Origin: a virus
Taxonomy: Duplodnaviria; Heunggongvirae; Uroviricota; Caudoviricetes
DNA length: 6,669 nucleotides
Reading direction: 5' to 3' (one strand)
Virus record (IMG/VR): IMGVR_UViG_2671180781_000011
The notes beneath the pieces were generated by a model, which searched no databases, was not told the DNA's origin, and worked only from the letters and a program-made list of their open reading frames with translations. Below, one piece after another: positions 1,925-2,379 of this stretch. The first letter of the stretch is position 1, and the number at the start of each line of letters is the position of its first letter. A program made the position numbers and the translations under genes.

Positions 1925-1953
1925 TTGGCGAGGTGACGGGAGTTAAGTAGAAT
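1925..1953 (+). promoter_or_regulatory. Candidate sigma70 promoter of the hok mRNA
   Basis: -35 TTGGCG (1925-1930), 17-nt spacer, -10 TAGAAT (1948-1953); predicted start near 1960, placing the tac-like element at the mRNA 5' end. Confidence 0.4.
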
Positions 1954-1957
1954 GGCT

Positions 1958-1971
1958 GCGGGTGCTTGAGG
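1958..1971 (+). promoter_or_regulatory. hok mRNA 5' element (tac/ucb-like) complementary to a 3' fbi-like element at 2334-2348
   Basis: GCGGGTGCTTGAGG (1958-1971) pairs with CCTCAATGCACCCGC (2334-2348): 8 bp plus 6 bp with a single-nt bulge. This 5'/3' fold-back is the hallmark of hok-family mRNAs. Confidence 0.5.
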
Positions 1972-2128
1972 CTATCTGTCTCAGGCATGAACACCAAAGG
2001 CAGATAGAGAAAAGCCCCAGTTAACATTACGCGTCCTGCAAGACGCTTAACATTAATCTGAGGCTCAATCTATGAACGGCAAATCTAGGTTAGCCTCTTA
2101 CGTGCCGAAAGGCAAGGAGAAGCAGGCT

Positions 2129-2284
2129 ATGAAGCAGCAAAAGGCGATGTTAATCGTCCTGATCGTCATCTGTTTAACCGTCATAGTGACGGCACTGGTA
2201 ACGAGGAAAGACCTCTGCGAGGTACGAATCCGAACCGGCCAGACGGAGGTCGCTGTCTTCACAGCTTACGAACCTGAGGAGTAA
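2129..2284 (+). CDS. hok: Hok/Gef-family type I toxin (small membrane-depolarising peptide, 51 aa)
   Basis: Translation MKQQKAMLIVLIVICLTVIVTALVTRKDLCEVRIRTGQTEVAVFTAYEPEE, which I recognise as close to E. coli HokD/RelF. SD AGGAG (2115-2119) lies 9 nt before ATG 2129; stop TAA at 2282-2284. An in-frame upstream ATG at 2072 (SD GAGG 2060-2063) gives the 70-aa ORF in the supplied track, a possible mok-like leader. Confidence 0.85.
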   Translation: MKQQKAMLIVLIVICLTVIVTALVTRKDLCEVRIRTGQTEVAVFTAYEPEE

Positions 2285-2352
2285 GAGACCAGGCGGGGGA
2301 GAAATCCCTCGCCACCTCTGATGTGTCAGGCATCCTCAATGCACCCGCACTT

Positions 2353-2379
2353 AACCCGCTTCGGCGGGTTTTGTTTTTT
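2353..2379 (+). terminator. Rho-independent terminator, 3' end of the hok transcript
   Basis: Stem CCCGC (2355-2359) / GCGGG (2364-2368) with a UUCG tetraloop, followed by TTTTGTTTTTT. Confidence 0.75.

Follow-up and report, generated by a model that had tools for sequence, protein, structure and literature searches.

A structurally complete hok/mok/sok-type toxin-antitoxin cassette in a lambdoid prophage of Escherichia coli

Does the small hok gene of this prophage stretch belong to a complete, RNA-regulated toxin-antitoxin unit, or is it a bare toxin frame of the kind known as hokD (relF) in the Qin prophage of E. coli K-12? The stretch of DNA that we analysed (hereafter the window, 6,669 nt in all) matches, at 100% identity over its 6.7 kb, a section of a lambdoid prophage in the RefSeq chromosome of E. 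coli Z1322HEC0003, where the hok ORF is annotated as hokD inside the prophage. The hok CDS alone is annotated at this locus, so that mok and the Sok RNA are missing from the annotation. We conclude that positions 1925-2379 very probably hold a complete type I toxin-antitoxin cassette, hok/mok/sok, that belongs to the hokD/hokW subgroup, is carried by a lambdoid E. coli prophage and works by the mechanism of plasmid R1. As judged from its sequence, with the full leader, the tac/fbi pair and the Sok gene and promoter all present, the locus is a structurally complete hok/sok-type system, as originally predicted; this completeness of structure is no proof of physiological activity.

The cassette lies in the early-right (nin) region of the prophage, with a candidate defence gene on one side and DUF968, rusA and Q on the other. 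It is part of a rightward early operon and is co-oriented with the ydaS-like, ydaT-like and replication genes, rusA and Q. The features of the window, in order, are:

First, plus strand: gene for a SEC-C protein of 932 aa, its C-terminal 575 codons lying in the window
Second, plus strand: the hok locus, after the SEC-C gene
Third, plus strand: a 92-aa ORF, after the hok locus
Next, plus strand: gene for a DUF968/HNH protein, related to ydfU
Next, plus strand: rusA
Next, plus strand: antiterminator gene Q
Next, plus strand: three tRNA genes (Ile, Arg, Arg)
Next, plus strand: TerB pseudogene
Next, plus strand: DUF3927 gene
Next, plus strand: a match to the STnc100 sRNA
Last, plus strand: gene for a SASA/NanS-type esterase, of which only the start is in the window

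The coding part of the cassette consists of two frames read in the same phase:

2129-2284, plus strand: hok ORF, 51 aa, with the Shine-Dalgarno sequence AGGAG at 2115-2119
2072-2284, plus strand: mok ORF, 70 aa, which extends hok at the N-terminus in the same frame and ends at the same stop codon
2060-2063, plus strand: mok Shine-Dalgarno sequence GAGG, 8 nt before the mok ATG

The predicted Hok peptide matches Pfam HOK_GEF (PF01848) with E = 3.9e-23 (81 bits, against a cutoff of 22). It has the family's size of about 50 aa, its N-terminal hydrophobic helix and its conserved cysteines, C15 and C30 being invariant in the Hok alignment. Identity is 98% to K-12 HokD, 90% to HokW and 37% to R1-type Hok. 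Matches to the NCBIfam Hok subfamily and HokA models fall under the curated cutoffs (49.5 vs 73), so the name 'HokD' is not based on those models. The longer frame has its own Shine-Dalgarno sequence, an upstream start and the expected overlap with hok, and phage records annotate the same ORF as 'MokW'.

Around these frames we located the elements of a hok mRNA:

1925-1953, plus strand: sigma-70-like promoter of the hok/mok mRNA, -35 TTGGCG (1925-1930), 17-nt spacer, -10 TAGAAT (1948-1953), 9/12 consensus matches
1960-2379, plus strand: predicted full-length hok mRNA, ~420 nt, from the Rfam start, the fold and the likeness to R1 and Sp5
1960-1971, plus strand: tac, GGGUGCUUGAGG, with three predicted partners: fbi while the RNA is full-length, ucb after trimming, and 1978-1988 in a metastable hairpin of the nascent RNA
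1972-2007, plus strand: 5' leader stem-loop (mRNA positions 13-48), in both the full-length and the trimmed fold and in the Rfam consensus structure
2013-2018, plus strand: ucb, the anti-Shine-Dalgarno box AGCCCC, predicted partner of the mok Shine-Dalgarno in the full-length RNA and of tac in the trimmed RNA
2092-2097, plus strand: dcb, AGCCUC, an element defined in PMC9841398, pairing with the mok Shine-Dalgarno region in the trimmed fold
2292-2313, plus strand: GC-rich 3' hairpin, presumed protector of the 3' end of the trimmed mRNA
2334-2346, plus strand: fbi, CCUCAAUGCACCC, at the family position 45-61 nt past the hok stop codon
2353-2379, plus strand: intrinsic terminator AACCCGC-UUCG-GCGGGUU, 7-bp stem and U-run (-13.8 kcal/mol, z = -4.3)

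The -10 hexamer of the hok promoter aligns with TATGAT of R1 and is conserved among hokD/W-type loci. Rfam RF01794 (the sok/hok leader, in sense orientation) matched 1960-2134 at 110 bits against a gathering threshold of 59 (E = 4e-25), and the window leader covers model positions 1-157 of 157. Since this match starts at 1960, seven bases past the -10, G1960 is the probable 5' end of the mRNA. At the far end of the unit, CCUCAAUGCACCC (2334-2346) is complementary to GGGUGCUUGAGG (1960-1971) over 12 bp with one bulged U, and the fbi motif occurs once in the window where 0.03 occurrences are expected by chance. The original prediction had named a Hok frame, a leader ORF, a candidate promoter, a transcription unit of roughly 420 nt, a 5' element complementary to an fbi-like 3' element and a UUCG-tetraloop terminator; every one of them was recovered within 2 nt, the leader ORF turning out to be mok and the 5' end moving from 1958 to 1960.

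We folded the predicted RNA in its full-length, trimmed and nascent forms. The minimum-energy fold of 1960-2379 (-170.6 kcal/mol, z = -6.9, with 0 of 100 shuffles as good) is closed by the tac/fbi helix. Within it AGCC(C)CAG at 2013-2020, which contains ucb, pairs with CUGAGGCU at 2058-2065, which contains the mok Shine-Dalgarno GAGG, and the ribosome-binding site is thereby predicted to be hidden. In the trimmed fold (1960-2331) tac pairs with ucb and the Shine-Dalgarno region is taken up by dcb, and the first 37 nt (1960-1996) are predicted to form an 11-bp hairpin that uses tac. Alternative pairings for the full-length, processed and nascent RNA were thus all found in silico as minimum-energy folds. 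In R1, tac/fbi pairing locks the full-length hok mRNA while ucb hides the mok Shine-Dalgarno, 3' trimming removes fbi and leads to the tac/ucb pairing and a mok Shine-Dalgarno/dcb stem in an RNA that is translatable and accessible to Sok, and a metastable 5' hairpin keeps translation off during transcription (PMC9841398). The window ucb corresponds to R1 nt 70-75 in sequence and role, and the 2292-2313 hairpin presumably stops 3' exonucleases in the processed mRNA as the last stem-loop of trimmed R1 RNA does (PMC9841398). With the same folding program the R1-type and Sp5 hokW mRNAs take the same closed architecture as the window mRNA, and the comparison with R1 structures proposed in the original prediction gave the same predicted conformations, closed and open. 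Could a short ORF, hairpins and a complementary 12-mer have come together by chance? All that would favour this is how common short ORFs are in general. Against it stand the Rfam and Pfam scores (E = 4e-25 and 4e-23), the fold z of -6.9, the 0.03 fbi motifs expected per window and the homologous units present in thousands of genomes, by which this explanation is already refuted; we give it practically no credence.

A complete system further calls for the antisense RNA, which the original prediction had left unplaced. We place it as follows:

~2080 to ~2006, minus strand: predicted Sok RNA gene, ~70 nt, with a 14-nt free 5' tail (2080-2067), a long hairpin (2066-2012) and a U-rich 3' end
2115-2087, minus strand: Sok promoter, read from sequence, -35 TTGCCT (2115-2110), 17-nt spacer, -10 TAACCT (2092-2087)

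The predicted fold of the minus-strand RNA has -30 kcal/mol (z = -5.7), and sequence and fold together describe a putative cis antisense Sok with its own promoter, a free tail and a hairpin over the mok start. A generic promoter scan found the hok promoter and missed the Sok promoter, whose -10 matches the sigma-70 consensus at only 3/6 positions; we located it by alignment to R1 and to the mutated -10 of sokW. It stands at the position equivalent to TTGCGC-17-TATCCT of R1, and its region (2087-2131) is base-for-base identical to that of Sp5 sokW. The Sp5 fragment equivalent to window 1978-2131 gave sokW antitoxin activity in trans, and a 'pro-less' mutation of the sokW -10 abolished antitoxin activity (PMC8621323). 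The window Sok gene falls inside the equivalent of this trans-active fragment and, judging from the sequences of primers YO-421/YO-422, the pro-less mutation appears to hit the same TAACCT hexamer as that of the window.

We then compared the locus with K-12 hokD, which according to the original prediction is reported to lack the regulatory elements. The alignment bears this out: in K-12-type genomes only window 2115-2378 aligned and relBE lies directly upstream, so K-12 hokD is without the regulatory half of the unit. It retains the hok frame together with the 3' hairpin, fbi and terminator, but relBE stands where the window has tac, ucb, the promoters of hok and Sok, the Sok gene and the start of mok. 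In strain CJ236 some 70 bp separate the end of relE from hokD, and no similarity was found upstream of the hok Shine-Dalgarno. What remains is very close to the window, with a single residue different in the peptide (A10V), a 3' UTR (hairpin, fbi and terminator) 98% identical, and the same 92-aa ORF, DUF968/ydfU and Q downstream. The alignment fits the 'genetic rearrangement' at K-12 hokD of which PMC7232551 and PMC12214031 speak, citing Pedersen & Gerdes 1999. The RefSeq name hokD and a peptide 98% identical to K-12 HokD could suggest that the window, too, holds such a remnant, an unregulated hok ORF at the tail of an upstream operon. This is refuted by the alignment, since the similarity to K-12 begins only at 2115, with relBE immediately upstream there, whereas the window has 155 more leader bases that match Rfam sok, R1 and Sp5 (tac, ucb, Sok and the mok start). 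The window keeps the full leader and is not a truncated relBE-hokD locus; we regard the remnant explanation as vanishingly improbable. Laboratory K-12 hokD is thus the atypical, decapitated member, and the full module is the common natural form.

The closest characterised relative of the complete cassette is hokW-sokW (with mokW) of the Stx2 prophage Sp5 (VT2-Sakai) of E. coli O157:H7, with 93% nucleotide identity over 1940-2356. Both reside in lambdoid prophages and have the same tac, ucb, dcb and fbi and an identical hok Shine-Dalgarno region. They differ at the Hok C-terminus (HokD-like TAYEPEE in the window, VDYESEK in HokW), in their terminators and by ~10 substitutions clustered in 2064-2086, that is, in the Sok 5' tail and first mok codons. 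Their place in the phage differs as well, the window copy lying in the nin region upstream of Q and Sp5 hokW in an accessory region at the far end of the genome. Plasmid R1 hok/sok (parB) has the order and spacing of elements and the closed and open predicted conformations of the window, the same ucb (AGCCCC), dcb (AGCCUC) and hok Shine-Dalgarno region, and the Sok promoter at the same place. Its tac reads GGCGCUU where the window has GGGUGCUU, with a matching change in fbi from GCGCC to GCACCC; the window's Sok hairpin exceeds that of R1 by 16 nt, and R1 is a plasmid where the window is prophage. Chromosomal hokC/mokC (gef) agrees with the window in tac sequence and fbi position, its fbi (UCUUCAACGCACCC) forming G:U instead of G:C at one pair; this is a core-chromosome locus, not phage-borne, with ~83% identity over part of the ORF only.

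The tac and fbi changes seen between these loci raised the question of how the 5'/3' pairing fares in homologues at large. For this, we used 80 hok loci (one genome per species) together with phage and plasmid copies. A GCUUGAGGC core was found 140-220 nt 5' of hok in most hok loci, and its best complement 45-61 nt beyond the hok stop codon. Changes in tac were matched by compensating changes in fbi, in agreement with the pairing originally predicted: GGGUGC goes with GCACCC in the hokD/W/C type, GGGCGC with GCGCCC in Photorhabdus and Pantoea, and GGCGC with GCGCC in the R1 type, while ...GAGA is found with UCUC in Photorhabdus and ...GAAG with CUUC in Citrobacter. We scored 22 distinct tac/fbi pairs (from Escherichia, Photorhabdus, Pantoea, Citrobacter, Kluyvera, Erwinia, Enterobacter and others). 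Paired cells made up 90%, against 24-53% when the partner was slid by 1-3 columns, and two-sided changes were found in 5 of the 12 base pairs (for example, at position 4, U:A 8, C:G 10 and U:G 2), counts that lean towards pairing because the fbi partner was taken as the best duplex in an 80-nt window with the bulged base removed. None of 500 shuffles reached the observed covariation score. That fbi keeps a constant place, and that pairing falls in the slid controls, both speak for a real signal, and the long-range pairing thus appears to be kept by covariation. Phylogenetic work on the hok family was reportedly done by Gultyaev, Franch and Gerdes in 1997, and the covariation result agrees with it.

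Two details of this analysis bear on how the pairs were chosen. An unconstrained RNAduplex search of tac against 217 nt past hok was led astray, in R1-type loci and some others, by unrelated GC-rich sites, and was rejected; restricted to 20-100 nt past the stop codon, the search recovered the known R1 fbi, with a consistent family position. A credible tac was absent from six loci (L011, L012, L017, L032, L036 and L054) and the tac motif also from L052, L064, L080, L084 and L086, and these were left out of the covariation set. In L012, L017, L032, L036 and L054 the upstream sequence is relBE-derived, as in K-12, and L011 can be aligned to the window from about 1963.

The cassette is widespread. 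At least 80% of a 501-bp query was found in 3849 of 5426 complete E. coli genomes (~70%), with a median of 2 places per carrier genome and up to 11. Other carriers are temperate phages, in which it appears as 'MokW', 'host killer protein', 'gef' or 'phage maintenance protein', and P1-like plasmid prophages. A 2026 preprint catalogues 44,248 Hok homologues, enriched in prophages, and uses K-12 HokD as a toxic control (bioRxiv 10.1101/2025.08.07.668861). HokW is toxic and is neutralised by sokW expressed from its own promoter; upon RecA-dependent induction sokW is lost and HokW appears about one hour ahead of endolysin, and deletion of hokW-sokW halves phage release (Takada et al. 2021, PMC8621323). 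The window locus is an already known system and an intact copy of it is ordinary; given its prevalence and the work on Sp5, the finding is the correct identification of a known system. It carries little weight as a discovery, being a textbook system present in most E. coli genomes with a near-identical prophage copy already characterised. The exact coordinates of the regulatory elements can nevertheless be used in tests of prophage hok/sok in induction, stability and exclusion.

How the cassette would work at the RNA level is well supported by homology. A constitutive promoter would yield a stable hok mRNA of ~420 nt, closed by tac/fbi, in which ucb hides the mok ribosome-binding site, and neither mok translation, nor the translationally coupled translation of hok, nor Sok binding would take place. 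Slow 3' trimming back to the 2292-2313 hairpin would remove fbi, tac would pair with ucb and the mok Shine-Dalgarno enter the dcb stem, giving an mRNA that is both translatable and a target of Sok. The unstable ~70-nt Sok would then pair over the mok start region, block mok and hok translation and expose the duplex to RNase III cleavage. Once Sok synthesis stops, the reservoir of hok mRNA would be translated and the 51-aa Hok would depolarise the inner membrane.

When this would happen in nature is a separate matter. By analogy with hokW-sokW we propose, with lower confidence, that prophage induction leads to loss of Sok and production of Hok, which would aid lysis and phage release. Sp5 hokW lies at a different place in its phage genome, and its induction behaviour may therefore not transfer to a copy in the nin region. 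The induction role of hokW, with phage release doubled (PMC8621323), comes from the one experiment on a near-identical prophage copy and differs from the roles in prophage maintenance or phage exclusion that were originally suggested for the window locus. The cassette may also serve in addiction/stabilisation or abortive infection; R1 hok/sok lowers T4 plating, as cited in PMC8621323. The locus could instead be an intact-looking but physiologically silent hitch-hiker that never releases Hok naturally, as might be thought from the Sok -10, weak by consensus, and from chromosomal hokA/B/C, which gave no post-segregational killing (PSK) and no rifampicin response (bioRxiv 10.1101/2025.08.07.668861). 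We consider a silent locus improbable, because all regulatory elements are intact and hokW-sokW, at 93% identity, is an active system with an effect on phage release (PMC8621323). Moreover, conservation extends as one block from the -10 through to the terminator and gives way to divergence in the flanks, a pattern that speaks for selection on the module as a whole.

Among 16 hokD/W-type copies, similarity starts at the -10 (~1945) and ends at the terminator (~2370), and the position of the unit differs between phages; by sequence, the hok/mok/sok unit behaves as a discrete cassette. Divergence inside the unit is clustered, in the same 16 copies, in 2064-2093, which covers the first mok codons and the free Sok 5' tail, and three copies that reside together in one Shigella flexneri genome (SFBU1023) all differ from each other in 2064-2093. 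This divergence, co-resident copies included, suggests that the specificity of Sok for its target has diversified.

Two further ideas, which we think rather unlikely, are these: that 2064-2086, the only hypervariable stretch of a cassette conserved elsewhere, is a specificity code of the Sok tail, and that transcription of the early operon collides with the Sok promoter. Were the first true, the code would prevent cross-neutralisation among co-resident prophages and give each a private addiction or lysis switch. Were the second true, antiterminated pR-type transcription at induction would shut off Sok and time Hok ahead of holin. A terminator scan of the window detected none between the upstream gene and the hok promoter, and with the cassette located in the early operon antiterminated transcription would cross it head-on to Sok. 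Such head-on early transcription could bring about a loss of Sok upon induction like that observed for sokW.

Two minor observations concern the surroundings of the cassette. An Rfam isrK match in the hok 3' UTR (2293-2374, 27 bits vs 50) was sub-threshold and was set aside as a resemblance of hairpin to hairpin. Neither Hok nor the 92-aa ORF downstream of it had a match in PADLOC; the 932-aa protein encoded upstream combines a Cap4-like nuclease domain, an AAA/STAND-type ATPase and the SEC-C motif, and looks like the product of a defence gene.

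The similarity between hok copies (loci L003, L005, L006 and L007 among those compared) extends from the hok -10 element (window ~1945) to the terminator (~2370), and the unit so delimited occupies different sites in different elements:

Sites of the hok/mok/sok cassette
nin region: the window, the K-12 Qin prophage and PPompW
immediately 3' of Q: PhiR12_3
accessory end of the genome: the Stx2 prophage Sp5
repL-bplB interval: a P1-like plasmid prophage

The cassette behaves as a mobile, moron-like unit. Within it, conservation is interrupted by a single hypervariable stretch (window 2064-2093), where at most 44% of copies depart from the window and which spans the first mok codons together with the free 5' tail of the antisense RNA Sok. 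In Shigella flexneri SFBU1023, three co-resident copies all differ in this stretch, and the variation may mean that modules sharing a host have diverged in Sok/hok specificity.

The sequence upstream of the toxin gene was also compared between copies. At five loci (L012, L017, L032, L036 and L054), the hok leader is replaced and hokD is preceded by the sequence that follows relE in K-12. The sources of these loci are further E. coli, Shigella flexneri, one Kluyvera and one enterobacterium, showing that the K-12-type upstream sequence is also found outside K-12. Near-identical E. coli-type hok loci, mostly on short contigs, were further recovered from assemblies labeled Veillonella, Acinetobacter, Xanthomonas, Streptomyces, Ferruginibacter and Oscillibacter (L008, L027, L033 and L065-L067); these most likely represent contamination or mis-binning and not a true host range.

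In the toxin itself, Tyr47 is invariant across the Hok alignment, and in the window its codon is TAC followed by G (2267-2270), which gives a UACG context. In K-12, hokD carries a TadA A-to-I site in a UACG context, where 6% editing recodes Tyr to Cys (PMC12214031); the sequence of this site is conserved in the window's hok.

Directly 5' of hok, the window holds part of a large gene:

124-1851: C-terminal part of a gene for a 932-aa protein (full gene at L001:6154-8952, in a collected locus)

The N-terminus of this protein contains a Cap4-like nuclease domain, where matches to LmuA, DUF4297 and HamA are weak, and the remainder comprises an AAA_22/AAA_16 ATPase region and then a C-terminal SEC-C motif. 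The gene appears to encode a candidate antiphage protein of the single-protein nuclease-STAND kind and is lodged in the accessory slot of the prophage nin region.

Downstream of the cassette, several RNA elements and genes were annotated:

4848-4932 (+): hairpin with a U-run, directly 3' of the Q gene
5050-5296: tRNA-Ile, Arg, Arg cluster
5469-5901: TerB-family gene, 3' of the tRNA cluster, broken by internal stop codons
6070-6242 (+): prophage sRNA STnc100, a strong Rfam match (100.8 bits vs 47)

The post-Q interval (4848-4932) also gave isrK, isrJ and leader-like Rfam matches, all sub-threshold; in lambdoid phages, this position is occupied by the late promoter and the short, terminated RNA made from it. 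A weak isrK match, like that found after Q, was also seen in the hok 3' UTR (window 2293-2374). Clusters of tRNA-Ile, Arg, Arg are typical of Stx phages; no stx genes lie between the window's cluster and its SASA/NanS-type esterase gene. STnc100 and the related PasD sRNAs have been tied to the esterase genes of Stx-type phages (2026 preprint), and the STnc100 match in the window is located just 5' of this esterase gene.
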